Shown here: positions 38,548-57,121 of the stretch, in pieces
Numbering within the stretch: position 1 is the first letter of the stretch
Layout: each line of letters starts with the position of its first letter
Assembly (NCBI GenBank): GCA_002397465.1
Contig: DHAP01000002.1
Span: 1,509 to 65,508, forward strand
From: Bacillales bacterium UBA4951
GTDB lineage: Bacteria; Bacillota_I; Bacilli_A; RFN20; CAG-826
Direction: 5' to 3'
DNA: 64,000 nt
The notes under the pieces: model-generated
Databases searched by the model: none
The model's input: the letters and a program-made list of their open reading frames with translations, nothing else
Told to the model about the DNA's origin: nothing
Program-made: the position numbers and the translations under genes

Positions 38548-38620
38548 CTTTCTCCTCCTACGCGTGTAACGCGCATTGTTTATATCTTAATATGCGTAGA
38601 AACGTTCGATGAAACCTTTA

Positions 38621-38634
38621 CTAAAACGATTTCG
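38621..38634. promoter_or_regulatory. LacI-family operator candidate upstream of the GH94 gene
   Basis: CTAAAACGATTTCG is a near copy of the 38810 site. It lies 75-87 nt upstream of the GH94 ATG. Confidence 0.4.
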
Positions 38635-38809
38635 CCGACTGACATCATTTTAGGCAAATAAACACCAAAAACAACTGGTGCAAAAATTTTTGGAAGCGAA
38701 AAAAGCACGAAACATTCATAGGGGGTCGGCGAAAAGGTGATTTCGCAAAAAAGTAAGGGCTTACATTTCCCTCTTGACGGGGCTTTTTTTCTTTCATACC
38801 ATAATTACG

Positions 38810-38823
38810 CGAAAACGATTTCG
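38810..38823. promoter_or_regulatory. LacI-family operator candidate at the lacI-ABC promoter
   Basis: CGAAAACGATTTCG is a 14-bp near-palindrome with a cre/LacI-like AANCGNTT core. It lies just downstream of TTGACG (38774), 17 nt, TACCAT. Confidence 0.45.
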
Positions 38824-38839
38824 TCAATTGGAGGCTCAG

Positions 38840-39862: not shown

Positions 39863-39937
39863 TTAGGCTATTACCGCTTTGTAGGGGCGGTTTAGGCAAT
39901 AAATGAGCACAACATTGAAAGGAGGATTCAAAAATCT

Positions 39938-41404: not shown

Positions 41405-41470
41405 ACGAGTAGCTCGGCTCGGGTGGCTGCCAAAAACAGCCACCCTAGCTTATTTTGGGGGACAAGAACC

Positions 41471-42556: not shown

Positions 42557-42557
42557 T

Positions 42558-43439
42558 ATGGCAACCTATGCGCTTCCAAAGAAGATAACCAAAAGCTACA
42601 AGGCCCAGCTTATCGTCCGCCGGGTCCTCGTCTATGCCGTTTTGATCCTCTTGTCCTTCCTTTGCATCTTCCCTCTATACACCCTCATCGTCAACATGAC
42701 GAGAAGCCATGGCGACATTTCCGCGAATGGTTTCAGTTTCTGGTTCGGGAACAATTTGGCCGCGAACTGGGATCTCGTCTTCAACAACGCCCACCTTCCG
42801 GTGGCCACAGCCTTGGTCAATTCAATCATCGTCTCGACCTTATCCTCAATCATCGCCGTCTATTTCTCCACTCTGACGGCCTTCTCGTTCAACGTCTATA
42901 ACTTCAAAGGCAAGAGTTTCCTCTTCACGTTCGTCTTGCTCATCATGATGATTCCGACCCAGGTCTCGGCTTTGGGCTTCGTAAGACTCATGAACTCCTG
43001 GCACGCGACAAACCAGCTATGGCCTCTCATCATCCCGAACATCTGCGCACCGGTCGTCTTCTTCTACATCAACCAGTACATGCAAGCCAATCTTCCTTAT
43101 GAGCTGATTGAGGCTTCAAGGGTCGACGGCAGTTCCGAGGTTGGCATCTTCCATAAGATCGTCATCCCTCTTATGAAACCCGCGATTGCGGTACAGTTCA
43201 TCTTCACCTTCGTCTCTTCTTGGAACAACTACTTCGTGCCTGCCCTTCTTATCGACAAGGACAGCGTCAAGACGTTGCCGCTGGTCATCGCGACCATCAA
43301 GGCCAGCGACCCTTCGACCTTCAACCTTGGGCAGGTCTATTGCTTGATAGGCGTGTCGATCATCCCGCTTATCATCGTCTATCTGATCTTCTCGAGATTC
43401 ATCATCAAAGGAATGACGGAAGGCGCGGTCAAAGGCTAG
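42558..43439 (+). CDS. sugar ABC transporter permease (MalG/UgpE-like)
   Basis: 293 aa with EAA-loop EASRVDGSSEVGIFHKIVIPLMKP. Confidence 0.9.
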   Translation: MATYALPKKITKSYKAQLIVRRVLVYAVLILLSFLCIFPLYTLIVNMTRSHGDISANGFSFWFGNNLAANWDLVFNNAHLPVATALVNSIIVSTLSSIIAVYFSTLTAFSFNVYNFKGKSFLFTFVLLIMMIPTQVSALGFVRLMNSWHATNQLWPLIIPNICAPVVFFYINQYMQANLPYELIEASRVDGSSEVGIFHKIVIPLMKPAIAVQFIFTFVSSWNNYFVPALLIDKDSVKTLPLVIATIKASDPSTFNLGQVYCLIGVSIIPLIIVYLIFSRFIIKGMTEGAVKG

Positions 43440-43456
43440 AAATCGTTTGATCGAAA

Positions 43457-43497
43457 GACAGGCTCAAATTACCTCCGGGCCTGTCTTTTTCTTTTTC
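43457..43497 (+). terminator. intrinsic terminator after the ABC operon
   Basis: GACAGGC (43457-43463) pairs with GCCTGTC (43479-43485), followed by TTTTTCTTTTTC. Confidence 0.75.
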
Positions 43498-43532
43498 TGA
43501 AAAAGCTGGAAACGCTTTCATGGGCGATACCC

Positions 43533-43561
43533 TTGTCACTTCATGAAAAGAACACTAGTAT
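43533..43561 (+). promoter_or_regulatory. sigma-A-like promoter for the small ORF
   Basis: TTGTCA (43533-43538), 17 nt, then TAGTAT (43556-43561). Confidence 0.4.
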
Positions 43562-43610
43562 GTACGACCGCTTCGAAAGAGGCGGAAAACACACTAGGAG
43601 GTAAAACGTG

Positions 43611-43763
43611 ATGAAAAGTTATGAAAACGACATCCGTAGCGCTAGCTTAAGCGCCACGATAGACGAACTTATGACCGATCGTTCTGAGACTGCCAGTGAG
43701 AGACTTGCCGATGGCATGGTGCTCTCATACATCGATGGCATAATGTCCGGAAACGCTCAATAA
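43611..43763 (+). CDS. small acidic protein, 50 aa, unknown function (below the ORF-track length cutoff)
   Basis: Read directly from the sequence: AGGAGG, 8 nt, then ATG. Translation: MKSYENDIRSASLSATIDELMTDRSETASERLADGMVLSYIDGIMSGNAQ. Flanked by its own promoter and terminator. Confidence 0.4.
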   Translation: MKSYENDIRSASLSATIDELMTDRSETASERLADGMVLSYIDGIMSGNAQ

Positions 43764-43778
43764 GCTGTCTAAAGAATT

Positions 43779-43806
43779 GACCCGAGTAAAATCGGGTCTT
43801 TTTTCT
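43779..43806 (+). terminator. intrinsic terminator after the small ORF
   Basis: GACCCGA (43779-43785) pairs with TCGGGTC (43792-43798), followed by TTTTTTCTT. Confidence 0.75.
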
Positions 43807-43912
43807 TACCTTTTATCGACACTTTAATGATGGCTTATTGTATAATTATCCCATCTATATGGGGCAACGCTCCTTTGTAGGATATAGATCTAATTTTCAA
43901 GGTGGAATGAAA

Positions 43913-46816
43913 ATGAATCTATCATCGATCACAGCCCGCAGCGTCTCTTTCTCGCCCTTCGAGAAAGTCACTTCTTTGTTTGGCTTAACTAGCTTTTCAG
44001 ACGCCTGTTTGTATTCCTTTAAGAACGAGACATATCTTGGTTTTGTCGGCTTAACAAAGAAGGCTCCAATCATCAAGGCTTTGTTGGCCCACGAAGAAGT
44101 CCGTTCCTTTCTTGATGAAGAAGGACTAAATAAAGAAAGCGGATATTTAGATTCATCGTCGCTTCACTTTGCTGATAGAGAAGTCTCTCTTCCCGAAGCC
44201 ATAAAAAAGATCGTCAATGAAGAAGTGGATGTCATCAAAGACTATGGTGGCTATCTAGATGAAGATGGCAACGAGCATCTAAATCTATTCTCACCAGAAG
44301 TCGGGCCTCATTATGGGGTCAATCTCTTACTGGGCTGGAGAGAGGAATATAAAGAGCCTTTGCTATCGACCCCCAAAAGCGTCGTCGACCAATACGGGCG
44401 CGGCTCCTTCAGAGGTGCCGCCAACTTTCAGGTCCTCGCCACGAGATGGGACATCAGGCCAGAGGAGAATGGGAATCCCTTCAACCGGCAGTTTTACATC
44501 CTTGAAAACAATAAGCAAATCTTCTACAGCGCGAACGTAAAAGAGAACGTTTTAGAGGCTTTTTGCGTCCATTATCCCGGTAAAAGCGTCATATCCTATG
44601 TTTTGAAAGATGGTTTAAAAATCGAAAGAACGATCTTTTTGCTCGACCAAAAGGAAGGTTTGCCAGAGGCGGTCGAAGCTCAAATCGTGAAACTCGTCTC
44701 CTCAAAGAAACGGCATTTAAGAATCGTCTTCACGGGGATGTTCGGCTTCTCAAATCCTGAGTGCCAGGAGGTCGATGTCGTCTATCAGACCTTGATCCAT
44801 CAAAGCGAGGCCATCGTTGATTCGGATAATAACGTGGTGGCTCTTTCTCCTTCTTATTACCCAAGCTATTTCAAATACCAGATGAGGTTCGCGTCCATCG
44901 TATCGGGTGGAACATACATGGATTCTTTCTCCAATGACGTGAACTCCTTTTTAGGCAACGGGGACATCAACCATCCAGATGGACTTATGCGTCTAGATTC
45001 ATCCCTTCTATATAAAGGCGCCTCATTCTTCGCGATGGATAAAGACATCGATGTTGATGAATCTCCTAAATATGTCATTTCTTACGCTGGGATGGTCGAT
45101 GCGGAGAAAGAAAAAGATCCAGACGCGCTTCTTAGAAAGAAGCTCGGGGCCTTGCTCAGCCTCTATCCTGACGAAAGAAGTCTCTTATCGGAGTTAGAGA
45201 GAAAAGAGAAAGCCTTCCATGACTATTCTTCTTTCTATCAAGCTCGTAGTGGCGATGAGGGCTACATCTCCATGGTCAATCGAAATCTTGTCTATCAGAA
45301 CATGTACCAGTCTTTTGTCTCCCGTTCCTTCGCCCAAACCCAAAAAGGTTACCGTGAGATAGGTTTTAGGGAGATCCAGGATCTATATGCCTCATTCCCT
45401 TATCTCATCAATTCAGGGCACAAGGATTTAGCAAAGGACTTGCTGGCCAAATGGATCGTTAATGTCTACAAGATGGGCTATGCCAACCACAATTTCTTCT
45501 ATGTCGGCAAAGAGCCAGGGCTCTGCAGCGACGATCAGATTTGGCTTCTTAAGGGCGTTGCGACTTATATCTCTCTTTCTGAAGACATCGGCATACTTGA
45601 TGAATCCTTTGAGATGGCGGATGGCTCATCTAGAAAGCTGATAGACACCATCGATGCCATCATCACTTATTCAGGAATGATATCAATAGGGGAACACGAC
45701 CTTCCTTTACTAGACTCCGCGGACTGGAATGACTGCCTTAAGATCGATGACGACCATCTACTGGGACCCGTTAAAGAAAAGGCTTATCTAAGACAGCTAA
45801 AAAGAAGCGGCGCCCCTTATGGGAGCAGGTTCATAAGCGAGCAAAGCGAATCAGTCATGAATGCCTTCTTACTCATTGAGGGGATGGACGAGATCCGTCC
45901 TTTCATCACGAAGGGCAAGTCGCTTCTAAAGAAGATAGACGACATCGAAAAGAGGATGAAAGCCTCACTCCATAAAAACGCCTTCATCAATGGTTATTAC
46001 GCAAGAGTGTTGATCAATAGGAAACACCCAAAGAACGGCATAACTTATGTCGGGGCTCCTGGAGATGGCTTATCAAACAACAAAGAACTAGATAACGGTT
46101 CACTATATCTGAATTCCTTGTCATGGGCTTTATTAAGCGGAGTCAGCAATGAAGAAGAGACTAGAAGCATGCTTTGCCTTGCCAAGAAATACCTTAAGAC
46201 CTCATCGGGATATAAGCTTTGCACGGATGAGGACCTCACTTTGACGGGGGCCAAGCAAGCGGCCACTTCGCATTATTATCCAGGGGACCGTGAGAATGGC
46301 GGAGTCTTCAAACACGCGGACATGATGTTCGTCTCAGCATTACTGAAAGGAAGCAAGTCATCATTTAAGGACGAGATAAAAGGCGAGATGCTGGATGAGG
46401 CATATTTCACGATGGACATCGTCTATCCGTATCACGTCCTGCGCGATCCTTATATATATAAAGGCAACCCCCGTTTCTGCACCCAATACAACAATCCTTT
46501 GAATAAAGAGAACATCGGGCCGATGCTTTCAGGGACGGCGACCTGGACTCTTCTATCGATATTGTCCTCGAGCGGGGTGAGCTTTGCTAATGGTGGGCTT
46601 TCCTTCAAGCCGCGTCTATCTCTAGACGAGAAAGAAAGACGCTTCAGCCTTCATTTGCTTGACGCCACCTATGATGTCAGCGTTTTTAAGGAGCAGGGGC
46701 GATACGCCTACGAGATCGCTTCGATGAATGTCGACGGAATGGAAATAGAACCATCGTCCGTGGTTAAGATAACTCGTGATGGAGCCTCGCATAAGATAAG
46801 CATCAAAATGCGATAG
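43913..46816 (+). CDS. GH94-like glycan phosphorylase, large form (possible beta-1,2-oligoglucan/sophorose-type)
   Basis: About 967 aa. The catalytic-region block LLDSADWNDCLKID parallels GRADWNDCLN of the GH94 enzyme at 36127-38547. An (alpha/alpha)6-like C-terminal part is present. The start is ambiguous (43907 or 43913). Confidence 0.75.
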   Translation: MNLSSITARSVSFSPFEKVTSLFGLTSFSDACLYSFKNETYLGFVGLTKKAPIIKALLAHEEVRSFLDEEGLNKESGYLDSSSLHFADREVSLPEAIKKIVNEEVDVIKDYGGYLDEDGNEHLNLFSPEVGPHYGVNLLLGWREEYKEPLLSTPKSVVDQYGRGSFRGAANFQVLATRWDIRPEENGNPFNRQFYILENNKQIFYSANVKENVLEAFCVHYPGKSVISYVLKDGLKIERTIFLLDQKEGLPEAVEAQIVKLVSSKKRHLRIVFTGMFGFSNPECQEVDVVYQTLIHQSEAIVDSDNNVVALSPSYYPSYFKYQMRFASIVSGGTYMDSFSNDVNSFLGNGDINHPDGLMRLDSSLLYKGASFFAMDKDIDVDESPKYVISYAGMVDAEKEKDPDALLRKKLGALLSLYPDERSLLSELERKEKAFHDYSSFYQARSGDEGYISMVNRNLVYQNMYQSFVSRSFAQTQKGYREIGFREIQDLYASFPYLINSGHKDLAKDLLAKWIVNVYKMGYANHNFFYVGKEPGLCSDDQIWLLKGVATYISLSEDIGILDESFEMADGSSRKLIDTIDAIITYSGMISIGEHDLPLLDSADWNDCLKIDDDHLLGPVKEKAYLRQLKRSGAPYGSRFISEQSESVMNAFLLIEGMDEIRPFITKGKSLLKKIDDIEKRMKASLHKNAFINGYYARVLINRKHPKNGITYVGAPGDGLSNNKELDNGSLYLNSLSWALLSGVSNEEETRSMLCLAKKYLKTSSGYKLCTDEDLTLTGAKQAATSHYYPGDRENGGVFKHADMMFVSALLKGSKSSFKDEIKGEMLDEAYFTMDIVYPYHVLRDPYIYKGNPRFCTQYNNPLNKENIGPMLSGTATWTLLSILSSSGVSFANGGLSFKPRLSLDEKERRFSLHLLDATYDVSVFKEQGRYAYEIASMNVDGMEIEPSSVVKITRDGASHKISIKMR

Positions 46817-46863: not shown

Positions 46864-46947
46864 GGGCCCGTGGCGGAATGGCAGACGCGTTAGACTTAGG
46901 ATCTAATAGGGCAACCTGTGCAAGTTCAAGTCTTGTCGGGCCCACCA
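46864..46947 (+). tRNA. tRNA-Leu (anticodon UAG), type II with long variable arm, CCA encoded
   Basis: Manual fold. Acceptor GGGCCCG/CGGGCCC. D arm GCG...CGC. Anticodon stem TTAGA/TCTAA with loop CTTAGGA. Variable arm AGG/CCT. T arm GCAAG-TTCAAGT-CTTGT. The 3' end is ACCA. Confidence 0.9.
46895..46947. repeat. attL-type direct repeat (3' 53 nt of tRNA-Leu)
   Basis: Identical base-for-base to 56537-56589. Confidence 0.85.
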
Positions 46948-46956
46948 TAAAAATAA

Positions 46957-46983
46957 GGTTCAGAGTAATCTGATCCTTTTTTT
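46957..46983 (+). terminator. intrinsic terminator now serving the tRNA (island-borne)
   Basis: GGTTCAG...CTGATCC hairpin with one mismatch, followed by TTTTTTT. Confidence 0.6.
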
Positions 46984-47012
46984 GAAGTCGTTTTCAATGA
47001 TTTTTGAAAAGT

Positions 47013-48308
47013 TCAGACCGTGAGACATCCGACGGGGATGACATAAACTCCATCTGTGCGCCGGTAGGCCATTCCTTCGTCTGTGATAACGGCCAAAAAA
47101 CTAGGAAGGGGCAATTTTTCGTTCGGGAATTTCAAATTATGCTCTTGGTAAAGAGGTTTAAAGGCCAAAAGTCCTTTTGCCCCGTCCTCGATGAACTTTG
47201 ACCCACATTTGCATTCAAATAATGCATAGCGGCCATCAGGCAAATGGATGGTAAAATCCGCTTCTAAGCTATAGCGATCATGGTATTGCCGCAGTTCACC
47301 ACCGAGCATTTCTGCATACACGCCAAGTTCTTTGCCACAAAGACACTCAAAGAAAAATCCCCGCGATTTCGGGTCATTTTCCAAGTCCCCCGGCCCGATG
47401 CCTAAAGCGGCGCAGGCGATTGCAGGGTCAAAGAACTCTTTTTTAGAAAGGCTTCTTATCGCAGTCTTGCTGCGGATACTCGGTGAATAGGAAGGGACTT
47501 CCTTGATGACATAAAGTTTTTGGAGGCCATCGTAATAATCATAAAAAGTGGTCGCCGACAGCGAGGAATCGTTCGCATTGACATCCGCAATGATGGTCTT
47601 ATTTTCGACATAGGTGGAAATGTTTCTGGCAAAGGAACGCAAAATTGATCTTGTGGTCTCGGGAGAAAGGTCCTTTCCGGTCGCCTCTTGGATGTCACTT
47701 TCCGCGATGCTGGCCAAAGCTTGCTTTCCGAAAATGGAAGGATCGGCGTATTCTCTCGTGAATGCGGCTGGGAATCCGCCCAAAACGATTTGCTTGCTGA
47801 TGGCTTGCCGGTCCAACGGCGAGATTGCCCCAATGTTTTGCTCAGGGTTGGCAAATAGAGAAGCCAAGGAGACTTCGCAATTAGATAAATGTGATTCGGC
47901 AAAAGAAAGAGTGGACATAGTCACTTTGGCGATTCGCATGCTGCCCGTGTGAATGGTTGTTCCTTTTTTGGGGGCTCTGGAACCCGTCAAAATATAGAGG
48001 TTCCCTTTATTCTCTTTATCAATTGAAGTTTTTGCGGCATCCCAAACTTCGGGATATTTCTGCCATTCATCAACGAGATGGGGGCGTTTGCCTTCCAAGA
48101 ATAAAGCCGGATTGGTGGCGGCAATTGCCTGGTAAGAACTTTCTTTGCTTTTATCGCCGAAATAAATAGCGCTTTCGGCAAGCTGTTCAGCGGTGGTTGT
48201 CTTTCCGCACCACTTAGGGCCCCGAATGAGCACTGCCCCAAATGTTTTCAGCAAGGAAGACAGCTGTTTATCAGCAAGTCTTGGGATGTAGTTATCGATT
48301 GTTTTCAT
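47013..48308 (-). CDS. AAA-type ATP-binding protein with DUF4143-like C-terminal nuclease-fold domain
   Basis: 431 aa. Walker A GPKWCGKTT, Walker B-like HLVDEWQ, and a C-terminal block (EADFTIHLPDGRYALFECKCG) typical of AAA_14/DUF4143 proteins. Confidence 0.8.
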   Translation of the reverse strand: MKTIDNYIPRLADKQLSSLLKTFGAVLIRGPKWCGKTTTAEQLAESAIYFGDKSKESSYQAIAATNPALFLEGKRPHLVDEWQKYPEVWDAAKTSIDKENKGNLYILTGSRAPKKGTTIHTGSMRIAKVTMSTLSFAESHLSNCEVSLASLFANPEQNIGAISPLDRQAISKQIVLGGFPAAFTREYADPSIFGKQALASIAESDIQEATGKDLSPETTRSILRSFARNISTYVENKTIIADVNANDSSLSATTFYDYYDGLQKLYVIKEVPSYSPSIRSKTAIRSLSKKEFFDPAIACAALGIGPGDLENDPKSRGFFFECLCGKELGVYAEMLGGELRQYHDRYSLEADFTIHLPDGRYALFECKCGSKFIEDGAKGLLAFKPLYQEHNLKFPNEKLPLPSFLAVITDEGMAYRRTDGVYVIPVGCLTV

Positions 48309-48330
48309 GATTAAATTATCATCTTTTTAA

Positions 48331-48756
48331 TTGTTTCGTTCAATAGTAAACGAATATATTTGCGGTATTTCGGCGAATATATTTGCTGTATTCGGACGAA
48401 GATATTTGCGCTGCCTCCCGCAGGTGGTGAAACGGATCGTGCTTGACGGGACCCATTTCCTTTCATTCCAATCGGGACCGGCTGAGCGCTATGTGACGCT
48501 CTTCCGCTTCGAGAGCAAGGACCTCTATGAGAGCGCCAAACTTTTCCGTCAGGACAAAGAGGACCGTGAGATTGAAGGGGATGGCGTGGTCGGCAAGGAG
48601 TGGCTCATCGATGTCAGGGATGCCATCAAAACAGAGACGTCAAAACTGGGAAAGCATCCTTCGGAGGACGAGGCCGGCGCAGCCATCGAATCCGTTTTCA
48701 AGAAGCTCACCCCAGGCGTAGACAAAGTTCGAACCGATCCCCGGGGGAAGCCATAG
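48331..48756 (+). CDS. hypothetical ORF; the real start and coding status are uncertain
   Basis: 141-aa ORF. Its N-terminus runs through the iterons. The GC-richer C-terminal 100 aa look protein-like, but I recognise no motif. Confidence 0.25.
   Translation: MFRSIVNEYICGISANIFAVFGRRYLRCLPQVVKRIVLDGTHFLSFQSGPAERYVTLFRFESKDLYESAKLFRQDKEDREIEGDGVVGKEWLIDVRDAIKTETSKLGKHPSEDEAGAAIESVFKKLTPGVDKVRTDPRGKP
48351..48419. repeat. three tandem 23-bp iteron-like repeats
   Basis: CGAATATATTTGCGGTATTTCGG / CGAATATATTTGCTGTATTCGGA / CGAAGATATTTGCGCTGCCTCCC. They are head-to-tail and begin 43 nt upstream of the ATPase start codon. Confidence 0.6.
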
Positions 48757-48848
48757 ACCGCTGAACAATCTTTGGGCCGTTTCTCCTAGAAAATAGGCGG
48801 ATTCGAATCGCCCGAACGCCAACCGCGATCGGATGGTTGGATTAATCC

Positions 48849-49100
48849 GCGGACGGGCGGTGATGCGGACGAAGAAAAAGTTTAGGAAGCGTCGGTGTTT
48901 TGACGCTTGTAACCCTGTTCCTTTCCTTGATAAAATGCTTATGGGAACGGAGGCCGCTCCCAGACGAACCGGCCCACGTTTCTCCGAAGCCCGCAAAAGG
49001 GCATTCGGCCCCTTAGACTTAGCGGTCCGCGTTTCGTCCGCATTCCGTCCGCACCCTGGCTTCCGCCAAAGGGAACGGAAGGGTACGCCCTGCTGCGGAC
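48849..49100. repeat. cluster of six GTCCGC/GCGGAC hexamers with nested hairpin (arm-type site candidate)
   Basis: GCGGAC at 48849, 48865 and 49095. GTCCGC at 49025, 49036 and 49047. The outer stem GTCCGCA/TGCGGAC (49047-49053 / 49094-49100) encloses CTTCCG/CGGAAG (49060-49065 / 49076-49081). Confidence 0.55.
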
Positions 49101-49180
49101 AAATAAGAATCCCTCGCCGATTACGAGACATTCTTCCCCAAAAGGAAATGAAAGGACACACCCTTTCAAACCGCTAAAAA

Positions 49181-49236
49181 GACTTAGGATCCTTTGGTTA
49201 ACAGCCATGCAGGTTCAAATCCTGTCAGGCGCACCA
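49181..49236 (+). other. heterologous tRNA-Leu 3'-half remnant (internal att-like site)
   Basis: GACTTAGGATC (anticodon loop) is identical to the resident tRNA-Leu. A different variable arm follows, then T arm GCAGG-TTCAAAT-CCTGT and acceptor CAGGCGC-ACCA. No 5' half is present. Confidence 0.7.
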
Positions 49237-49248
49237 AAACAAGCAAAA

Positions 49249-49276
49249 CTCCGGCTTCGACTTGCCGGAGTTTTTT
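49249..49276 (+). terminator. intrinsic terminator following the tRNA-half remnant
   Basis: CTCCGGC (49249-49255) pairs with GCCGGAG (49264-49270), followed by TTTTTT. Confidence 0.7.
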
Positions 49277-49290
49277 CATGAGACTTGGTT

Positions 49291-49544
49291 TTATAGATTC
49301 CTAACTGGCTCTGCCGTGAGAAACGTCACGGTTTTGGCTGCAATGCGCAACAGTTCCTTTTGCTCTTTCGAAAGTTTGCCCTCCGACAGCGGCGTCTCAT
49401 ACTCTCGGAAAATATACTCGGTAATTTCACTGATGTTGTCGTCGTTCAACTCGTTGATTTTCATTTCGGGGAATATTTTGCTTTCTAAAAAACGATCGAT
49501 GTCGCTAGGCAGGGGTAGTTAATGCTCAGTTTGTTTTTGACCAT
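49291..49544 (-). pseudogene. frameshifted member of a small-protein family (paralog of 49985-50233)
   Basis: MVKNKLSINYP, then a frame change at a CCCC run, then LPSDIDRFLESKIFPEMKINELNDDNISEITEYIFREYETPLSEGKLSKEQKELLRIAAKTVTFL. It aligns along its length with the 82-aa paralog. Confidence 0.5.
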
Positions 49545-49559
49545 GCTCTTTTGCTCTTT

Positions 49560-49850
49560 TTAAAAATCCCCTCTGGCACTGTTGATGGTTTTGTTGATCG
49601 AGGCTGCCATTTCGAGGTATTGGGATTCTTTTTTTGTAAGTTTTTTCGCATCAAATTTGTCCGCATAAGAAATTTCGACATTTGTGCAAAAGTCAACGAT
49701 TTCAAGATAGTTGTCTTGAGTGATTTTGGAAATACCAAGTTTCGGCATGATCTCCGTGTTTAAAAAATTCATTTGCTCTGTTGAAAAACTTAAATATTTA
49801 GCCAATTCATCGGAAATAATTTTGCCCATTGTTGCCTTTCTTCTTTCCAT
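49560..49850 (-). CDS. small protein, divergent member of the same family
   Basis: 96 aa (or 89 aa from ATG 49829, which follows a purine-rich RBS). It shares the pattern FL..(I/M).P.(M/L)....(I/L)..DN...I..(F/Y)......LSK/TKKE...L..A...I. Confidence 0.5.
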   Translation of the reverse strand: MERRKATMGKIISDELAKYLSFSTEQMNFLNTEIMPKLGISKITQDNYLEIVDFCTNVEISYADKFDAKKLTKKESQYLEMAASINKTINSARGDF

Positions 49851-49984
49851 AATTGTGTCTCTTTGATGAGCTCTCTAAAACGGTAGTGTCTAAACGTTTT
49901 CAGTATCACGACTCGTTGAGCGAATGTCCGTTACCGCATTTCTGCTAATGCACTTCGCTTTTGTAGGAAGGCGGGGGATCTTCA

Positions 49985-50233
49985 TCATTGGTAGGCTTTT
50001 GTTGATAATTCCGTGATTGCGTTGGAAGCAAGATCGAGGAGCCTCTTCGATTCCTTCGATAGATGTTTGTCTTGGCTAAGCGGATTTTCGTAATTGTCGG
50101 CGATGAACTCGATGACGCTTTCGATGTTGTCATCATCGATTTCAGTTAAAGTCATTTTTCCGGAAACGTATTGGTCCAGAAAAGAAACGACTTCTTTTGA
50201 AGGGGTGTATTTGTTGCTGAGATTGAATTTCAT
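49985..50233 (-). CDS. small protein, 82 aa, unknown family (intact paralog)
   Basis: GAGGAGG RBS. MKFNLSNKYTPSKEVVSFLDQYVSGKMTLTEIDDDNIESVIEFIADNYENPLSQDKHLSKESKRLLDLASNAITEL. Confidence 0.6.
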   Translation of the reverse strand: MKFNLSNKYTPSKEVVSFLDQYVSGKMTLTEIDDDNIESVIEFIADNYENPLSQDKHLSKESKRLLDLASNAITELSTKAYQ

Positions 50234-50484
50234 TTGCTTTTCCTCCTCAATAACTTACTTAATAGTTTAGACGAGAAATGCCAAGCGTTGGTAACAAAAT
50301 TATCTTTCGTTAGATGACAATCTCAACGCAACATAACTCTTTAATTTCGATTAATTCTGAAGTTTTTCATTTTTTGTTGCGTTGAAGTTGACCACATTTA
50401 CGCGTAATATTCGATATTATGATAATGCTTTACAGCGATTATTTGCTAATGATACAATAGAATATACCAACGGAGGTTCTTCCT

Positions 50485-51099
50485 ATGAAAAAAAGACTTG
50501 TGTCCTATATTCTTATCACTGTTTTAGCTTTTGGTGGTATGTTAGGCATTACTGCAGTTCGCAACAACGGTTTCATTAATAATGTCCACGCCGACAAAAC
50601 TGAAGGCTTATCTTCGATTGCCTTTACAATTGCTAAAGTTGGCACCTATGCTTATCAAGCAGACGGGATGCATGATACTCGCGATAATTTGAGTCCAAAC
50701 AAATCGATACTTGATGAAATGAACAACAATAACGGCTTGGTAACATCAATAAGTAATTTGCAAACTGTTTATCCTGGGAATTCATCAGGTGGTCCTGGTG
50801 CTGCATCTGACGCCTTAAAATTTGGTGGTTCTAGCGCCGTTGGAACATTGACTTTATCAACTCAACACGTAATTCACAAAGTTGTTATTAGATTTGCTAC
50901 TTGGTCTGCTACTAAGAATTCACAACTTAAAGTAAACGACGTGGCTGGTGTCGCTGTTGCAAGACAAGCTTACGATGACGAGACATTTACTTTATCGACA
51001 CCAAGTGATTCAATAACTATTGCCTCCCTATATCCATCGAGCGGAGACCGTCGGCTTTTAATCAGTCGAATCGATTTATATCATTATTGCAGTATATAA
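50485..51099 (+). CDS. secreted or membrane-anchored protein of unknown function
   Basis: 204 aa with an N-terminal signal/anchor (MKKRLVSYILITVLAFGGMLGITAV). GGAGG lies upstream of the ATG. Confidence 0.6.
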   Translation: MKKRLVSYILITVLAFGGMLGITAVRNNGFINNVHADKTEGLSSIAFTIAKVGTYAYQADGMHDTRDNLSPNKSILDEMNNNNGLVTSISNLQTVYPGNSSGGPGAASDALKFGGSSAVGTLTLSTQHVIHKVVIRFATWSATKNSQLKVNDVAGVAVARQAYDDETFTLSTPSDSITIASLYPSSGDRRLLISRIDLYHYCSI

Positions 51100-51463
51100 A
51101 CTTGCAATCAAGTGAATTTCGGTTCTGGTAAATCCGTCGTGGAATACAAAAAAAGTGTCCACGTTGTATTTAACAGAATCTGAATTAACTGGGGAGGGGC
51201 TGTTAGAACCAATTATCAAGGCTTTTTTTGTGCTTAAAACGCTAAAAATAGGCCATTTAATACTGATTTCTATGATTTTCGGTGATAGTTAATGGTTTTC
51301 AGGGCAAAAAATAGGGGGAAATATATACTATTGAAAACCTACTAGTTGAACGATTAGGGGGCGGGGTTGCACGATTGATCGATTACACGAATATTTGTAT
51401 TCTTTGACGCAACCTTTGCCAAAATTGTCTTTAATTACTCGCTAAAAAATAGCGAAAAATGAA

Positions 51464-51493
51464 CAAAAAACGACCTAAATTGGTCGTTTTTTG
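51464..51493. terminator. bidirectional intrinsic terminator
   Basis: ACGACC (51470-51475) pairs with GGTCGT (51482-51487), flanked by an A-run and a T-run. Confidence 0.5.
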
Positions 51494-51526
51494 TTAATTT
51501 TGATTATGAGTTCGATTAGCTAATGC

Positions 51527-52750
51527 TCAGTTCGAGGGGTTTTGCCAAAATAGATTATTTTCATTGTAAGATAGCGAACCGACTTTTTCGATGATAAACC
51601 CTCCGAGTTCGAAGTTTGGAAGATCATATAAATCCTTTTTGAAGCCCAGTTTGAGGCGATGGCCATTCTCTCGTGCATTGATAACGCCAGCGAGGCGATC
51701 AAGGGTTTTAAGATGAAAGACATTGGGAACTTTATCAAACCGGGGACAGTAGTAATGCGAGTTCATGCATTCTTGCGAACAACCTTCATAGTCAGCGTTT
51801 AGATAGGCTTTTAGACATTGCGGGTTTCTTCTTAACATTGTTTTAATCTTCCTTACATCGTTATCATCATCTAGTCCTTCAAGAGCTTTAATCAATGTTT
51901 CCTGATAGTTATTGTCATTAAGTTCTTCGTCGCTTACGACAAGACCTAGACTCTTCTTAAGCGCGGCTTTGATGTGATATTTATCAGGGACATAGCGGGC
52001 TTTGCAGACGAGGATTTTATCAGGAGCGTGCTGAATATAACTAGCTAGGTCACCCGAGATATACACCTCGTCGTCTAACGATACTTTGTACTTATCTCTT
52101 AATACCAGATTTAGCCTTTTTAACAAGAGCGATAGATTAACATTTGCAAGCAAAGTCCGGCTTTGAAGCACTCTTTTTTCTCCGTAGTGGCGAACGCCCT
52201 TGAAGATGGTGCACGTAAAGAGTTTCTTTTTGTGCTTATTCTCTTTGACGTGAACGAACTTCTCGTCGAGCTGAACGTGAATCGCAGCCTCATTGCTGAA
52301 AAAGACATGATGGTCTTCGATGATGAATTCACTATTTCGAATCAGACGACAAACCGTCGATTTGGAAATGGGATAATCCTCGTTTGATCCATAGCGGCCG
52401 GCTTTGGCGTAGGACATCTCGGAGGCGGCTTCGATGAGCTTGATTTTGACATCGTACATTAGCTTGTTCCTTTTAGGAATAGCTAAGAAGGCATCGAGTA
52501 GGTACAAGTAGCGATGCTCTATCTCGTCATAGTAGTAGCGGCGGTTAAAAGAAAGCATTCCAATCGATGTGAGAATTGAACGCGGCTTTATCTTAACAAT
52601 TCTTAAATATTTTGGCCTTCGACTGGCGAGGCTTATATCAATTCTTTCAAGGACCTTAGCAAGCTCAGATAATCCGCTTATTTTGATATCTTTAATGTAA
52701 TCGACAACAAATTGTTCAAAGGAAGTGGTTGAGGAAGGTATAATGTCCAT
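51527..52750 (-). CDS. ISLre2-family (UPF0236-like) transposase
   Basis: 407 aa. Characteristic blocks KPRSILTSIGMLSFNRRYYYDE, YLLDAFLAIP, VQLDEKFVHV, ISGDLASYIQ and PDKYHIKAAL. Confidence 0.65.
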   Translation of the reverse strand: MDIIPSSTTSFEQFVVDYIKDIKISGLSELAKVLERIDISLASRRPKYLRIVKIKPRSILTSIGMLSFNRRYYYDEIEHRYLYLLDAFLAIPKRNKLMYDVKIKLIEAASEMSYAKAGRYGSNEDYPISKSTVCRLIRNSEFIIEDHHVFFSNEAAIHVQLDEKFVHVKENKHKKKLFTCTIFKGVRHYGEKRVLQSRTLLANVNLSLLLKRLNLVLRDKYKVSLDDEVYISGDLASYIQHAPDKILVCKARYVPDKYHIKAALKKSLGLVVSDEELNDNNYQETLIKALEGLDDDNDVRKIKTMLRRNPQCLKAYLNADYEGCSQECMNSHYYCPRFDKVPNVFHLKTLDRLAGVINARENGHRLKLGFKKDLYDLPNFELGGFIIEKVGSLSYNENNLFWQNPSN

Positions 52751-52917
52751 GGGAGTTCTCCGTATTCTGTCGGCAAAACAATTATAGCGAACTCCCTTTT
52801 TATATGGTTACCTACCTTTATGAAACGTAATCATACATTTGACAACATTTGCATTTAATCAAGGTACGGCTTATATTGGATTTATAGCAAAAAGAGTTGA
52901 AGAATGAATAGTGACTA

Positions 52918-54286
52918 ACTCATTGCAACAACTTAGGGGCGATGAAGTTTCAAAGAACAACTCCTGCTGCTTCTGATTAGGTATTTCTTGCTTTACCTAA
53001 TTAGTGATGGTTTAAGGCAGACATCCTTGCTGGGGACGGCCTTAATGCCGATGGCGTTCATAAAGGTAACGCCGAACCTCTCTACCGTAAGTTGGTAGGG
53101 AGTTTTATTTTTGTTGGACTTTCTAATGTAGGAATTGATGTGCGAAAACAGGCGATTGACTTTCTCCTGAGTCAAGAAATCTAAGCTCTTGCCCTTCATA
53201 ATTACGTAGCGAATGAATTCATGATTTCTCTCGCAGGCGGCTTTGTCCGTCGAGCGGTAAGGATTGGTGAAAAACATCCTGGTGATGACGGCTCCCAATT
53301 CGTTGATCTCCAACTCGTGGAAGCGAGCGAACTCGGGACCATTATCGCTTAAGTTAATTGGAAAGATCGCCTCGTATTCGCTTCCTAATATCTCTTGAAG
53401 TTTGCGTATCCTGGCCACGACCGACCGCGCGCTTCCCTTGCTGATCAGATAGCCGAATTGAAATCGTGTCGAAGGCAGCGTGATCGTCAAGATCGCTTTT
53501 CTATCATCGATCTTTCCTTCGACTGAATCGTATTGCCATGGATTGAGATCAGGATAGGCTTTAACATAGTTAAGATAATCGGAATGCGTTCTTCCCAGCA
53601 TTCGTTCGACATTGACGATCTTCTTTTTGGCATAGTCATACTTATGCTTGTAGCGGACGTATCGGGGTAGTTCATGAGCTCTGACACTCAGATAGCCTTT
53701 ATAGATGTATCTCCGTATCGTCCTTTCCGAGCAAAGCGACTGGAGCAAAGAACTCGCGACATAGAGATGGTGAAGGGATTGGCCCCTTTCTTTAATCCCG
53801 TGAATGAGCTCCTGATCGATCGCGGTTAAATCATTTGCATCAATCCGCTTAAAAACGCGCGGCTCAACCCTTTTCTTTTGCGATGAAGACTCGGCGTCGA
53901 CACAGTCATAATATCTTTTTAGATTGCTGCATATCGAAGCGTTCTCGCAGCCGTTGCACGTATATGGAAACCGTTTCCATCTACGGCAGCGAAAAGCATT
54001 AAAATCAGGGCATTCCCCGCGGACAAAAGGCGGCTTATTTAGACAAAGCTTTGAACAATGATAACACGTATGACGGCACGGCTTATAATAGCAGTTATTA
54101 ATAATTTCTCGATAGATGGTCGAACGAGACTTGCCTAGCAAACGAGAGCATTGCTGCAAAGAATAGCCCTTAGCGATTGCTGCTTGTAAATTGATACGAT
54201 CATCATGCATTAATCGTACTTTAGACATAAGATTCTCCTTTCTAGCAGCAGGAGACATCATTATAAATCAATTTGTTGCAACGACT
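52918..54286 (-). mobile_element. IS30-family insertion sequence (approximate ends)
   Basis: Terminal imperfect inverted repeats ACTCATTGCAACAA (52918-52931) and TTGTTGCAACGACT (54273-54286). An inner inverted 10-mer CTCCTGCTGC/GCAGCAGGAG. One transposase ORF fills the element. Confidence 0.55.
52993..54228 (-). CDS. IS30-family transposase
   Basis: N-terminal HTH (GYSLQQCSRLLGKSRSTIYREI) and a DDE integrase-core C-terminus (TLPSTRF...SDNGPEF...RNHEFIR). Start at ATG 54228 after AAGGAGA. Confidence 0.85.
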   Translation of the reverse strand: MSKVRLMHDDRINLQAAIAKGYSLQQCSRLLGKSRSTIYREIINNCYYKPCRHTCYHCSKLCLNKPPFVRGECPDFNAFRCRRWKRFPYTCNGCENASICSNLKRYYDCVDAESSSQKKRVEPRVFKRIDANDLTAIDQELIHGIKERGQSLHHLYVASSLLQSLCSERTIRRYIYKGYLSVRAHELPRYVRYKHKYDYAKKKIVNVERMLGRTHSDYLNYVKAYPDLNPWQYDSVEGKIDDRKAILTITLPSTRFQFGYLISKGSARSVVARIRKLQEILGSEYEAIFPINLSDNGPEFARFHELEINELGAVITRMFFTNPYRSTDKAACERNHEFIRYVIMKGKSLDFLTQEKVNRLFSHINSYIRKSNKNKTPYQLTVERFGVTFMNAIGIKAVPSKDVCLKPSLIR

Positions 54287-54535
54287 CTGGCATCTATCGA
54301 CAAAATTATCTTTCGGGTTGATGCAGGTCAGTGTTTTGTTGTCCGATAATCGTCGATAGGAAGGTCTTCCTTTAATATCAAAAACTACGGGTGTTATTTG
54401 AAGGGGTTTCTTTCTTAGATTATAGCCAACCTCGCCCTTGCTGACCAAACGAAGCTTCATCCTTTCGATAGCATGATAACCGACTTTGTAGTGGTTAACC
54501 TCGTAAGGCTTCCTTGGGTAATATTTCTTAGTCAT
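54242..54535 (-). CDS. small DUF4258-like (toxin-like) protein whose 3' end runs into the IS30 element
   Basis: 97 aa. GYHAIERMKLR resembles the HA.ERM..R motif of DUF4258 proteins. About the last 15 codons lie inside the IS30 inverted repeat. Confidence 0.3.
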   Translation of the reverse strand: MTKKYYPRKPYEVNHYKVGYHAIERMKLRLVSKGEVGYNLRKKPLQITPVVFDIKGRPSYRRLSDNKTLTCINPKDNFVDRCQSRCNKLIYNDVSCC

Positions 54536-54695
54536 GGTTTCCTCCTATTGCTCTACAGGCAAACAATAAAAGAAACGATACCCATAAAATAGAGAACATC
54601 CAACAAATCTTTTAGTAGACAATATTTACCATAAAATCAAATGAACATATAAACTTTTAAACAAATTAGGTAGACAAAAGGTATACTATTATTAT

Positions 54696-55508
54696 ATGGA
54701 CCCCGATTCCTCAGACAAATATCGAGTGAGGATTTCCCGTTACTGCTTCTTGATCCTGGTCAACGACTGTCAGGCTTTTGGCTGCGTGAACAGGAAGGGA
54801 GAAGCGAACCTTTGCGGATTCCTGAACCGCCTTATTCCGGTTCTGGTGGATCAAAGGGAGTCTAGGCAGGCTCTGATTCACGACAAGCTCTTGGAGACCG
54901 GGCTCATCAAAGAGGCGAAGAATCGCTATGAGAGTGCCGCCAATAATTATTTGGACACGATTTTCGACCGGGTTTATTTTGCCGACTACTTGTCGGGGCG
55001 CCTGACGGAGGCCATCTGGATCCGGCCCAATCAGCAAACCGGGCTTCTTTTCGAAACGATCGTGGGCTCCATCATCAAGAAAAGCCAAATAGACTTGAGC
55101 AAATACCTGAGGAGTTTGATCGTCGAATATTGCTCCGTTCCGCAGTTTCGCAGGGAACAGCTCTTTTTCAAGAAGGAAATCCATGTTATCGAATCGGCGA
55201 TAGAACACGGGAATTCTTTGATGATCAGCGAGAACAAAGCGAAAAAAGATGTCATACCCATCACGATGGCGGCCGAGTACACCTTCGATCAAAGGAATTA
55301 TCTTCTGGCTTTAGAAAATCGGGAAGATGGGAAAATCCTTTCCTTGCCGATTGAAAAATTCACTCCTTTGTTCGAAAGCGATCCCGCTGTCGTTCCGACC
55401 CAAAACCAACTCGATTTCGTCGAAGAACTGATTAATGATGGCGCCTTTTGGGAGAAAGAAGAGTTTGAAGGCAAGGAGGATGCAGCACGTGTTTTGGAAC
55501 AAAAATAG
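54696..55508 (+). CDS. hypothetical protein, 270 aa, possible WYL-like C-terminal region
   Basis: Long ORF with protein-like composition. The segment VIPITMAAEYTFDQRNYLLALENREDGKILSLPIEKF loosely follows the WYL-domain pattern. Confidence 0.55.
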   Translation: MDPDSSDKYRVRISRYCFLILVNDCQAFGCVNRKGEANLCGFLNRLIPVLVDQRESRQALIHDKLLETGLIKEAKNRYESAANNYLDTIFDRVYFADYLSGRLTEAIWIRPNQQTGLLFETIVGSIIKKSQIDLSKYLRSLIVEYCSVPQFRREQLFFKKEIHVIESAIEHGNSLMISENKAKKDVIPITMAAEYTFDQRNYLLALENREDGKILSLPIEKFTPLFESDPAVVPTQNQLDFVEELINDGAFWEKEEFEGKEDAARVLEQK

Positions 55509-55685
55509 AAAAAAAGAGAAACCTTTGTCAAAAGAAAATAAGCGAAAACGGGAATGGGCCATCAGGAATTACTATAAAAAGAAAAGGGGCAAGTAGAATT
55601 CTCGTTGCCCGGGATGGTGATGTTCGTAAAAAGTAAGGCCACTTAAAATGTTTTTTCAGTTTTTGAATTTTCTGTCTAGGAGGAA

Positions 55686-56171
55686 TTGATGGACCCAAAT
55701 TTCAAACCTTTCAGAATCGGCGGCATCGAAGCGCTTGAACGCTATCCTTGCGGGAAGGCCATCGGCGAGAAAGGGAGAGCCAAAGTCTATTATCTCTGCC
55801 GCTGCCTTTCGTGCGGGAAACAATTTGTTCTCACCGGCGACGAACTCAATAAGAAACCCAAATCCTGCGGTTGCCTCAACCATTCCGGATTGCCGAACGA
55901 GGCCGTTTCCGCTTTTCCGGTAGTTGAGCGTTTGGTTGAGCATCGCCATAGCCAGCCGAGGGAAAACCCCAACAAAAACTCCCTATCCAGTCAGGTGGGG
56001 GTCTATTTCGACAAGGAAAAGCGTTTTTGGCGGGCGCAGATCGCCTGACGAGGGGAGCAAATCTCGTTCGGGTCGTACTCAAGCGAGGCCGAGGCGGCTG
56101 CGGCTCGAAAGGGCGCGATGCTTCTTTTTGATGCGATGCTCGGAGAAAAACTGAAAAATACAGATAACTAA
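55686..56171 (+). pseudogene. Cys4 zinc-ribbon + AP2-domain DNA-binding protein gene with one in-frame TGA
   Basis: YLCRCLSCGK...KSCGC, then GVYFDKEKRFWRAQIA-TGA-RGEQISFGSYSSEAEAAAARKGA. The stop at 56046-56048 falls inside the AP2 domain. The frame continues to TAA 56169-56171. Confidence 0.6.
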
Positions 56172-56366
56172 TCGGCATTTTCAGCGCCAAAGAATGTCGC
56201 TTGTTGTTTTCAAGGACAAACTTGCAAATCGAACTTGTTTTTCGCATCAGGTCAAATGGGCGGGAGATACATTTGTGTTGTGTGCTATGCTGTCTTGGGA
56301 GTGGAAGCCGTTCCCAAAACAGGCAGAACCGACAAGGCATCCCAGCCAAAACCACGTCGGAATCCT

Positions 56367-56454
56367 GTCCGCATTCCGTCCGCACTTGGTTCGCATTTGG
56401 CCCCCGTGAAGGAATACAAAAGATTCACATTGCTTACATTTCCTTCATGCGGAC
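56367..56454. repeat. second GTCCGC/GCGGAC hexamer and nested-hairpin arm, homologous to 49025-49100
   Basis: GTCCGCATTCCGTCCGCAC (56367-56385) is identical to 49036-49054. The outer stem GTCCGCA/TGCGGAC (56378-56384 / 56448-56454) encloses GAAGGAA/TTCCTTC (56408-56414 / 56440-56446). Confidence 0.55.
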
Positions 56455-56536
56455 AAACAAGAAACGCGGCCATAGACGGGTGAAATATTCACAAATAGGA
56501 CAGAAGAAAGCAAATCCTGCAGTTAGCCCCGCAAGT

Positions 56537-56589
56537 CTTAGGATCTAATAGGGCAACCTGTGCAAGTTCAAGTCTTGTCGGGCCCACCA
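56537..56589. repeat. attR-type direct repeat (displaced 3' half of tRNA-Leu)
   Basis: Identical to 46895-46947. No tRNA 5' half lies upstream. Confidence 0.85.
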
Positions 56590-56602
56590 AAACGCAAAAA
56601 AA

Positions 56603-56634
56603 GTCCAATCGGAAACGGTCGGGCTTTTTGTTTT
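56603..56634 (+). terminator. probable original tRNA-Leu terminator
   Basis: GTCCAATCG...CGGTCGGGC hairpin with one mismatch, followed by TTTTTGTTTT. Confidence 0.5.
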
Positions 56635-57121
56635 GGTGCGCTGGCGAAGTGAAGTGAACCTCGAATTTTCATTAGTCCCTCCCGATTTGATAAAGCAATT
56701 TTGATTGGTTGAAACATTGGATGATGAAAGCGCAGCCGCCCATGATTCTATGACATTCTCTGATCGGGTGGTCTTAGTCGCTAAGATCGCGTCGCTTTGA
56801 GCGAGGTTCCTCTTCGAAAATAAAAGCTTCCCCCTCCATCAGGGAATCAATATTGACCTTGAGAATAGGAGGATTATATTGTCTCATTCGCTTTAAAAAT
56901 GTGACGAAAGCATAATATATTCGCTTGAAAAATGTGATGAGCGGATGATTCGTTTTTTCCTAAGAAGTCTTCACTACTACTGAACAAAAGGATTATGGGA
57001 CTTCATTTTAATTTCTCCGACTATAATCTCGGCTTAGATTTCCTGTGATTAATATTGATGTTTTTTTACATGATGTATTTTTAAGTTGTCTAAAATATTG
57101 TTTGAATTGGAGGGGGCTACA

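Follow-up and report, generated by a model that had tools for sequence, protein, structure and literature searches.

A tandem pair of integrase-less att-bounded cassettes in a tRNA-Leu(UAG) gene of an uncultured Bacilli lineage, probably akin to cis-mobilisable elements

The stretch analysed here, called the window throughout, comprises 64,000 nucleotides of contig DHAP01000002.1 of Bacillales bacterium UBA4951, and our subject is the island of some 9.7 kb that begins within its tRNA-Leu(UAG) gene. This gene, hereafter T1, is intact and occupies positions 46864-46947; it is the sole tRNA that ARAGORN finds in the window and is recognised by Rfam as RF00005 with 57.8 bits. Its last 53 nucleotides (46895-46947, attL) recur as an exact repeat at 56537-56589 (attR, core 56537-56543), and not one base more matches on either side, the repeat extending from the first base of the anticodon loop to the CCA. 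The loop itself reads CTTAGGA (46895-46901 at attL) and constitutes a 7-bp core. No tRNA 5' half stands in front of the distal copy, which is the displaced native 3' half of T1 and is followed by the native terminator of the tRNA gene, a hairpin and T-run at 56603-56634. The proximal copy is followed by another hairpin and T-run, read from the sequence at 46955-46983, which now serves as the T1 terminator; all these features lie on the plus strand. T1 is a composite whose 5' half is native and whose 3' half, like its present terminator, was brought by the first of the two cassettes described below. The hallmark of a tDNA island is that an intact tRNA gene bounds it on one side and a direct repeat of the 3' part of this gene on the other, and tRNA prediction, Rfam and repeat comparison agree with the initial annotation, made from the sequence alone, both on this duplication and on the separate distal terminator.

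What that annotation took for one island is nevertheless a tandem of two cassettes with a nested insertion of the insertion sequence (IS) type, and its inventory of two repeats had overlooked a third, diverged tRNA-Leu(UAG) 3' half with a terminator at 49183-49276. The internal att site (49183-49236, plus strand) consists of the core CTTAGGA and the 3' half of another tRNA-Leu(UAG), T2. The fragment opens with the same CTTAGGATC as the 3' half of T1 and diverges afterwards; its acceptor strand cannot pair with the 5' half of T1, and it matches the 3' half of a complete T2 gene (L027, 14652-14737) with 94% identity. AAAC and then a hairpin and T-run terminator (49249-49276, plus strand) follow it, in the layout seen at the distal repeat. 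The T2 fragment marks the start of cassette B and divides the interval into cassette A (46902-49189) and cassette B (49190-56543). The alternation of AT-rich and GC-rich blocks noticed earlier is real, with a GC content of 0.49 in A, 0.40 in the left part of B, 0.41 in the insertion and 0.46 in the right part of B. The GC-rich stretches had been described as long and non-coding; they are GC-rich, but not anonymous non-coding DNA, being composed of the att arms, a pseudogene and a small open reading frame (ORF). A large noncoding RNA, intron or bridge RNA was considered for them and rejected, Rfam at E<=1 showing no RNA family there.

Cassette A is made up of the tRNA 3' half and terminator, an ATPase gene, a 141-aa ORF and an arm, arm A. 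The ATPase, of 431 aa (47013-48308, minus strand), carries AAA_14 and DUF4143 domains (Pfam E=1.9e-20 and 1.9e-11) and matches the PADLOC model PDC-S01 (E=3.2e-46), which makes it a candidate for an anti-phage system of a single gene. With the DUF4143 protein of a cassette in a sister taxon it shares only 24% identity, indicating that genes of this class have been captured repeatedly and are cargo; a scan of viral contigs with it gave no match. The 141-aa hypothetical ORF (48331-48756, plus strand) has no family match and is called as a gene in other assemblies. At its start, in the divergent region beside the DUF4143 gene, lie tandem 23-bp repeats (CGAATATATTTGCGGTATTTCGG and a variant, 48351-48396), which may be an operator or promoter element.

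Cassette B is composed of the T2 3' half and terminator, small ORFs, a 270-aa protein, an AP2-like pseudogene and a second arm, arm X. Three paralogous small ORFs of 57, 96 and 82 aa (49291-50233, minus strand) share a D-D-N-I...P-L-S...K-E-x-K-x-L-L motif and have homologues in the arrays of sister taxa, with no family in Pfam, PHROGs or PADLOC. A 97-aa ORF (54242-54535, minus strand) has its 3' end replaced by the nested insertion; it measures 99 aa in uninterrupted strains, where the 82-aa gene overlaps its end. This set of small ORFs could be toxin-immunity-like. The 270-aa protein (54696-55508, plus strand) belongs to a narrow family and may be a regulator, judging from weak WYL/WCX matches of its distant relatives; its AlphaFold model, with a predicted local distance difference test score (pLDDT) of 33, was unusable. 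The AP2-like DNA-binding gene (55689-56171, plus strand) couples a zinc-ribbon-like N-terminus to an AP2 domain and, as the earlier description of an interrupted gene had it, is broken by an in-frame TGA at 56046-56048, where the intact 160-aa homologues (P0121) have Cys. The protein matches solely the AP2 portions of phage HNH-endonuclease families.

The AP2-like gene is a hallmark of the cassette family (L041 4194-4685; L038 16250-15828; L027 14809-14964; and the window copy). Most cassettes have it directly behind the tRNA or att site and the accompanying terminator, as their first gene and in the same orientation; cassette B alone has it just upstream of the arm. The constant position beside att sites suggests a role in the biology of the element itself, and the product might act in regulation, as a directionality factor or in arm binding.

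The nested insertion, delimited by strain comparison, measures 3,990 bp (50310-54299) and encodes a 204-aa secreted protein (50485-51099, plus strand) and, as identified by domain search, a UPF0236/ISLre2-type transposase (51527-52750, minus strand) and an IS30-like transposase with a Cys-rich insert (52993-54261, minus strand). A perfect 16-bp direct repeat, ACAAAATTATCTTTCG, flanks it at 50294-50309 and 54300-54315, which is unusually long as a target duplication for either IS family; no terminal inverted repeats were found at its ends, and no second copy in the public assemblies searched. The insertion is missing in L004, L005, L007, L008 and L030 and present only in L028/L082, 100% identical to the window; a look-up of the IS30-like transposase returned the same strain's contig only. 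Since most strains with the island lack the insertion, the transposases arrived after the island had formed and cannot be its integrase. The cargo had been listed correctly as a DUF4143 ATPase, small orphan ORFs, two transposases and an interrupted AP2 gene, except that the transposases are not plain island cargo, both residing within this one later, strain-specific insertion. Between the 204-aa gene and the UPF0236 transposase there is a 20-nt inverted repeat with a 6-nt loop (51456-51501), probably a bidirectional terminator, with weak sub-threshold Rfam matches (RNAI, IS128).

Both cassettes end in a P-arm. Arm A (48849-49182) contains six arm-type sites, GCGGAC at 48849 and 48865, GTCCGC at 49025, 49036 and 49047, and GCGGAC at 49095, that is, a direct pair spaced by 16 nt, an inverted triplet at intervals of 11 nt and one further direct copy; all are intact, they span 48849-49100, and the last ends about 85 nt before the core. 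The same six-site layout recurs at L013, L041 and L057, and the same architecture at L076. Arm X (56295-56536) has GTCCGC at 56367 and 56378 and GCGGAC at 56449, its sites too lying about 85 nt from the core. The window contains 12 copies of TGCGGAC against 6.1 expected, and 7 of the 12 fall within the approximately 670 bp of the two arms, where 0.06 would be expected (Poisson P ~8e-13). This pattern, that of a heterobivalent tyrosine integrase, points to TGCGGAC as a putative Int arm-binding site. In the related loci, too, the att sites are tRNA 3' halves preceded by arms of 240-430 nt with direct and inverted TGCGGAC repeats, and CTTAGGA is the exact place of all junctions, both those of the window and those of about 30 att sites from related loci; the crossover would take place within it. 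These junctions, together with the steps in strain identity described below, bear out the earlier proposal of site-specific integration into the tRNA gene with displacement of its native 3' end.

The integrase that one would look for inside a tDNA island is absent from this one. A Pfam profile search of all six frames of 46948-56640, with stops masked and at E<=1, detected neither a Phage_integrase nor a Resolvase or Recombinase domain, in agreement with the failure of the initial annotation to recognise a recombinase motif in any ORF. One might then suppose that the island encodes an unconventional recombinase of its own, be it the IS30-like DDE transposase, the UPF0236 protein or the DUF4143 ATPase, given that three proteins with domains of the DNA-transaction type lie in the interval and that DDE enzymes serve as integrases of some integrative and conjugative elements (ICEs). 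We regard this as highly improbable: both transposases belong to a later insertion that most island-bearing strains lack, the copies of cassette B in sister taxa contain no such gene, the DUF4143 proteins have diverged between cassettes as cargo does, and clusters of arm sites beside a 7-bp core are characteristic of heterobivalent tyrosine integrases, one of which indeed exists together with identical arms at L057.

The integrase was found in relatives. A 192-aa fragment at L013 retains all catalytic residues and starts at an internal Met that is conserved in the full-length proteins; no N-terminal remnant was found upstream of it in L013. A metagenome scan with this fragment led to intact genes at L051 and L057. 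At L051, a 117-aa excisionase-like gene with a helix-turn-helix (HTH) is followed by a 455-aa integrase 96.8% identical in nucleotides to the L013 relic. The gene order at L057 is TraG-type ATPase, ArdC-N, primase-polymerase, DUF3846, HTH_17 (Xis) and a 452-aa tyrosine integrase, and thereafter come restriction-modification cargo, a canonical six-site arm and, at 14336, CTTAGGA with a tRNA-Leu 3' half. The L057 integrase has about 120 extra N-terminal residues, weak SAM-like core-binding matches at 126-222 and its catalytic domain at 235-425. Integrase relics truncated at the 5' end were also observed at L013 5866-6444, L041 4758-5126, L076 9940-10252 and L040 13638-13841. In several cassettes (L041, L076, L040, L043, L044) such relics come immediately 3' of the tRNA or att site and are often joined directly onto a truncated AP2-like gene that follows the tRNA terminator, as if DNA between the left end of the element and int had repeatedly been lost in large deletions. 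Their location beside att sites indicates that the cassettes either are decayed members of an ICE-like family or were captured by that family. We considered whether integrases of about 195 aa (int192, P0002, P0003) might be a functional short form acting with an AP2-like arm-binding subunit, and rejected this as the principal explanation because the start is an internal Met, upstream remnants are lacking and intact versions of 452-455 aa exist. A 321-aa homologue, P0015, was likewise set aside as a member of another family, its context being without a tRNA-Leu half or arm sites.

The explanation that we favour, with a probability of roughly 0.7, is that tyrosine-integrase recombination at CTTAGGA placed two integrase-less, att-bounded cassettes in tandem in this interval, that these descend from an ICE-like family as its relics or derivatives, and that they are best likened to cis-mobilisable elements (CIMEs). 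As in CIMEs, attL and attR are retained (three att sites, with arms before two of the fragment copies), genes for integration and transfer are absent, and the att sites are held in common with an ICE-like element that encodes the cognate integrase (L057; also the intact Int of L051). The initial annotation had offered decay, or an integrase supplied in trans to a cis-mobilisable element, as alternatives. Each captures a part of the answer, and the two merge because the cassettes would be relics of ICE-like elements whose intact integrase of 452-455 aa adjoins the same arm, core and tRNA half in relatives; CIME-like is the better description.

Look-ups of the flanking proteins made it possible to compare about 20 contigs or assemblies of the same species. 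The island is present in at least 8 independent assemblies (ENA, NCBI, JGI, Logan) at 99.5-100% identity, most of them without 50310-54299. This bears on the notion that the structure is an assembly artefact or a simple segmental duplication of the tRNA 3' end. Several metagenome contigs (L020-L022) do break at the repeat, but with at least 8 independent assemblies spanning the island in the same structure, and with a duplicated segment of exactly the extent expected for integration at the anticodon loop, the chance that this notion is correct seems to us next to negligible.

Other strains of the species (L027+L013, contiguous in a 1.63-Mb contig, L029, L032, L014, L015 and L019) have configuration 2, in which a different array of about 15.7 kb, including GmrSD and the 192-aa integrase fragment, occupies the space between the same two cores. 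Configuration 2 is 99.9% identical to the window up to the attL core on the left, where homology stops with the final base of CTTAGGA, 46901; on the other side, arm X is 93% identical and the sequence from the attR core onward 99.8%, and attR is joined to the conserved right flank in all strains. That the breaks in identity fall on the 7-bp core is as expected for site-specific exchange. At L027 14307-14800 (continuing into L013) and, in sister taxa, at L040 2411-2620 and L041 3739-4190, the 5' half of the host tRNA-Leu is orphaned exactly at CTTAGGA and not rebuilt, attL and attR have only 7 bp in common, and a complete, different tRNA-Leu(UAG) lies 31-307 nt downstream, followed by a terminator and the AP2-like gene; the intervening 31-307 nt carry arm-type sites in L027 and L041. 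These loci thus have the anatomy of tRNA-dependent integration, whereas the window's own tRNA is rebuilt.

The intact AP2-like homologue P0121 led to loci L040-L047 of sister taxa, in which arrays of five or more cassettes were found, each bounded by an arm with CTTAGGA and by a tRNA-Leu 3' half with its terminator; the cassettes of related loci measure 2-3 kb each. Besides cassette B itself, the sister arrays carry as cargo a sigma factor, a Na+/H+ exchanger, BREX genes, a Schlafen/AlbA_2 ATPase and another DUF4143 ATPase accompanied by an acetyltransferase. At least six sequence types can be distinguished among the tRNA halves, and the features of these arrays recur in a more distant lineage (L037, L038). 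What is shared of cassette B, namely the 82-, 99-, 270-aa and AP2-like genes and arm X, is 96-98% identical between sister taxa and the window, against 64-73% in the flanking DNA. Cassette B always runs from the T2 half to arm X, with four different left and three different right neighbours, and the switch is always at the core. Cassette B has therefore spread recently between species and between array positions. The order of cassettes is permuted between L040/L043 and L044, with 99.4-99.7% identity per cassette, as would fit the excision of a multi-cassette circle and its re-entry at another internal core.

Homologous recombination would offer another route to such rearrangements, and in its strongest form this alternative holds that arrays are swapped by transformation or conjugation and RecA, acting in the flanks and in the arm and tRNA-half repeats, with no current role for site-specific recombination. 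Configurations 1 (that of the window) and 2 do share conserved flanks and a 93%-identical arm X, and arms of the same class, 85-100% identical over about 215 nt, could anchor exchanges. Against this, every neighbour switch falls at the 7-bp core and not at variable points within arms or tRNA halves, the step from 93% to 99.8% identity is located exactly at the core, adjacent tRNA halves of different sequence types offer little homology, and flanks that are 64-73% identical between species are a poor substrate. As a full account, homologous recombination is thus very unlikely.

A rival that deserves more serious attention accepts the same origin by accretion and holds that both cassettes are now inert fossils, unable to recombine, inherited vertically and decaying. 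Several observations lend it weight and count against our explanation. No empty site, excised circle, A-only or B-only variant was found among the approximately 20 assemblies of the species, so that of the relatives with an empty site that the initial annotation had suggested looking for there is no example, the site being occupied in other strains by the different array between the same cores; all configuration-1 assemblies have A and B together. Arm X keeps the proximal three sites, but a proximal site is degenerate and the distal pair is missing. The nonsense codon of the AP2-like gene is fixed, occurring in all same-species copies examined, and cassette B is disrupted by the IS-type insertion in the window strain. 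No integrase lies in the window, and a tblastn search of its 64 kb with the integrase relic gave no match. To these may be added that the permutation between L040/L043 and L044, at its arm-Z junctions, could have come about by homologous recombination between the similar arms of about 215 nt. The fossil view is nonetheless hard to reconcile with a cassette B that has the very same truncated arm in sister taxa and is yet 96-98% identical across species and at several array positions; the sites of arm A are all intact and both 53-bp copies are still identical, and an intact integrase 96.8% identical to the relic of this species was recovered from the same kind of metagenome. We consider complete inertness unlikely, and we infer that the copies in the window are still recombination-proficient.

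The events behind the tandem array that we propose may be pictured as follows. In its circular form, each cassette would comprise the tRNA-Leu 3' half, terminator, cargo, P-arm with TGCGGAC sites and core. Judging from the anatomy of the sites, Int would recombine the 7-bp cores in the anticodon loop with the aid of the arm sites upstream of the core, and an incoming circle would enter at the leftmost core, its 3' half completing the host 5' half and the older units being shifted to the right. The 3' half of cassette A is identical to that of the host, so that the tRNA is regenerated on its insertion, and cassette B begins with the foreign T2 3' half. Loss of int, xis and transfer genes would then leave att-bounded cassettes, on which the Int and Xis of a visiting helper might act to bring about excision between any two cores, shuffling and co-transfer; the comparisons with sister taxa lend this last step indirect support. 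As for T2, a relative that integrates by means of the short core may have left the host tRNA split while carrying a complete tRNA-Leu(UAG) inside the array; insertion of cassette A would have restored the host tRNA, and a core-to-core deletion would have left only the 3' half of the carried tRNA. The transposase-bearing segment of 4 kb was added to B afterwards, and in this strain alone.

Of the systems described so far, the accretion of CIMEs with ICEs comes closest. CIMEs are defined as elements that have lost the genes for integration and transfer and have kept attL and attR, and the accretion model couples them to ICEs (PMC5704250), an example being ICESt1/ICESt3-CIME of Streptococcus thermophilus (Pavlovic 2004; Bellanger 2011; reviewed in PMC5704250). 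The likeness lies in the tandem arrangement at one attachment site, the relationship to ICEs with a tyrosine integrase and the presumed need of a helper for excision and co-transfer. The present system differs in its target, the anticodon loop of tRNA-Leu(UAG) in uncultured Bacilli, in the arrays of five or more cassettes of 2-3 kb at related loci, and in that every cassette comes with a six-site arm and with a tRNA 3' half of its own, the halves being heterogeneous in sequence. With the classical tDNA islands of the Islander model and its anticodon-loop class of integration sites (PMC4383910) it shares a tRNA split and restored by the island, a displaced 3' fragment at the far end and an identity block from anticodon loop to CCA, but the window has no integrase gene, holds two units and contains an internal fragment from a different tRNA-Leu. 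The tycheposon islands of Prochlorococcus (bioRxiv 10.1101/2020.12.28.424599) are similar in that successive tRNA integrations push older elements inward and in their partial tRNAs, fragmented integrases and cargo or defence genes; their host phylum is unrelated, and the helper here is ICE-like (TraG-type ATPase, ArdC, primase-polymerase) rather than equipped with the tycheposon replication module. In the tRNA-dependent lysogeny of actinobacteriophages, the host tRNA is split and a complete tRNA is carried just inside (PMC10865867). The alternative array and the sister taxa correspond to this in having tRNA-Leu split at the 7-bp core, not rebuilt, with a complete tRNA-Leu(UAG) inside, and the T2 fragment of the window looks like the relic of a carried tRNA gene; the differences are that the carrier is ICE-like and not a phage, that the hosts are Bacilli and that the window tRNA was rebuilt by cassette A. 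Taken as a whole, this is a genomic island of a well-documented and essentially ordinary kind, although the family to which it belongs proved richer than the one island had led one to expect.

Integrons invite comparison as well, on account of a single chromosomal platform with many small, integrase-less, individually bounded cassettes in variable order. Unlike in integrons, there is no IntI beside the platform, either next to the tRNA or within the array, the left flank being a GH94 operon; the sites are double-stranded attP-like arms and tRNA halves instead of attC hairpins with single-stranded substrates, and the cassettes bring along terminators and apparently promoters as well. The features intI, attI, Pc and attC were not found, and Rfam finds no structured element. 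It is possible, if doubtful, that the tRNA-Leu(UAG) locus is nevertheless an integron-like capture platform run by a roaming ICE integrase and that the pair in the window is live within the cassette pool. If so, small integrase-less cassettes, each equipped with a tRNA half and a six-site arm and bearing for the most part defence or regulatory genes, would leave the array one by one or in groups, enter again at whichever core and pass between species, and some helpers would split the host tRNA and substitute their own.

The left flank of the island (36127-46816) is occupied by a sugar-utilisation cluster of the GH94 type (cellobiose/cellodextrin-phosphorylase-type), which includes a LacI regulator and an ABC transporter. 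Among GTDB species representatives, the closest ('Bacilli bacterium RGIG3320', goat reticulum) shows only 49% aa identity, so that the host species is poorly represented in genome collections; a scan of genome contigs with the GH94 protein of the flank returned relatives at 40-49% identity only, none of them syntenic. On the side of the cassettes, the cargo at related loci is mostly of a defensive nature, comprising BREX (PglZ, BrxL, Lon-like protease), a GmrSD-type type IV restriction system, Schlafen/AlbA_2 ATPases and a restriction-modification pair (L042 1-7731; L013 6480-8807; L040 14272-15654; L057 11181-13576). Dominated by such genes, the locus behaves as a defence island; the cargo in the window looks defence-related as well.

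These findings imply that an island of orphan appearance can be explained without a new recombinase, the cognate integrase residing on related conjugative elements and the chromosome keeping the att-bounded cargo. They point to a hot spot in uncultured gut- or rumen-type Bacilli, a single tRNA gene at which candidate anti-phage genes (the PDC-S01 ATPase, GmrSD, BREX, Schlafen-like ATPases and restriction-modification systems) accumulate and are rearranged, and they extend both CIME accretion and the replacement of a tRNA upon integration to a new host group. Clusters of TGCGGAC followed by CTTAGGA and a tRNA-Leu 3' half provide a signature by which such cassettes may be annotated.

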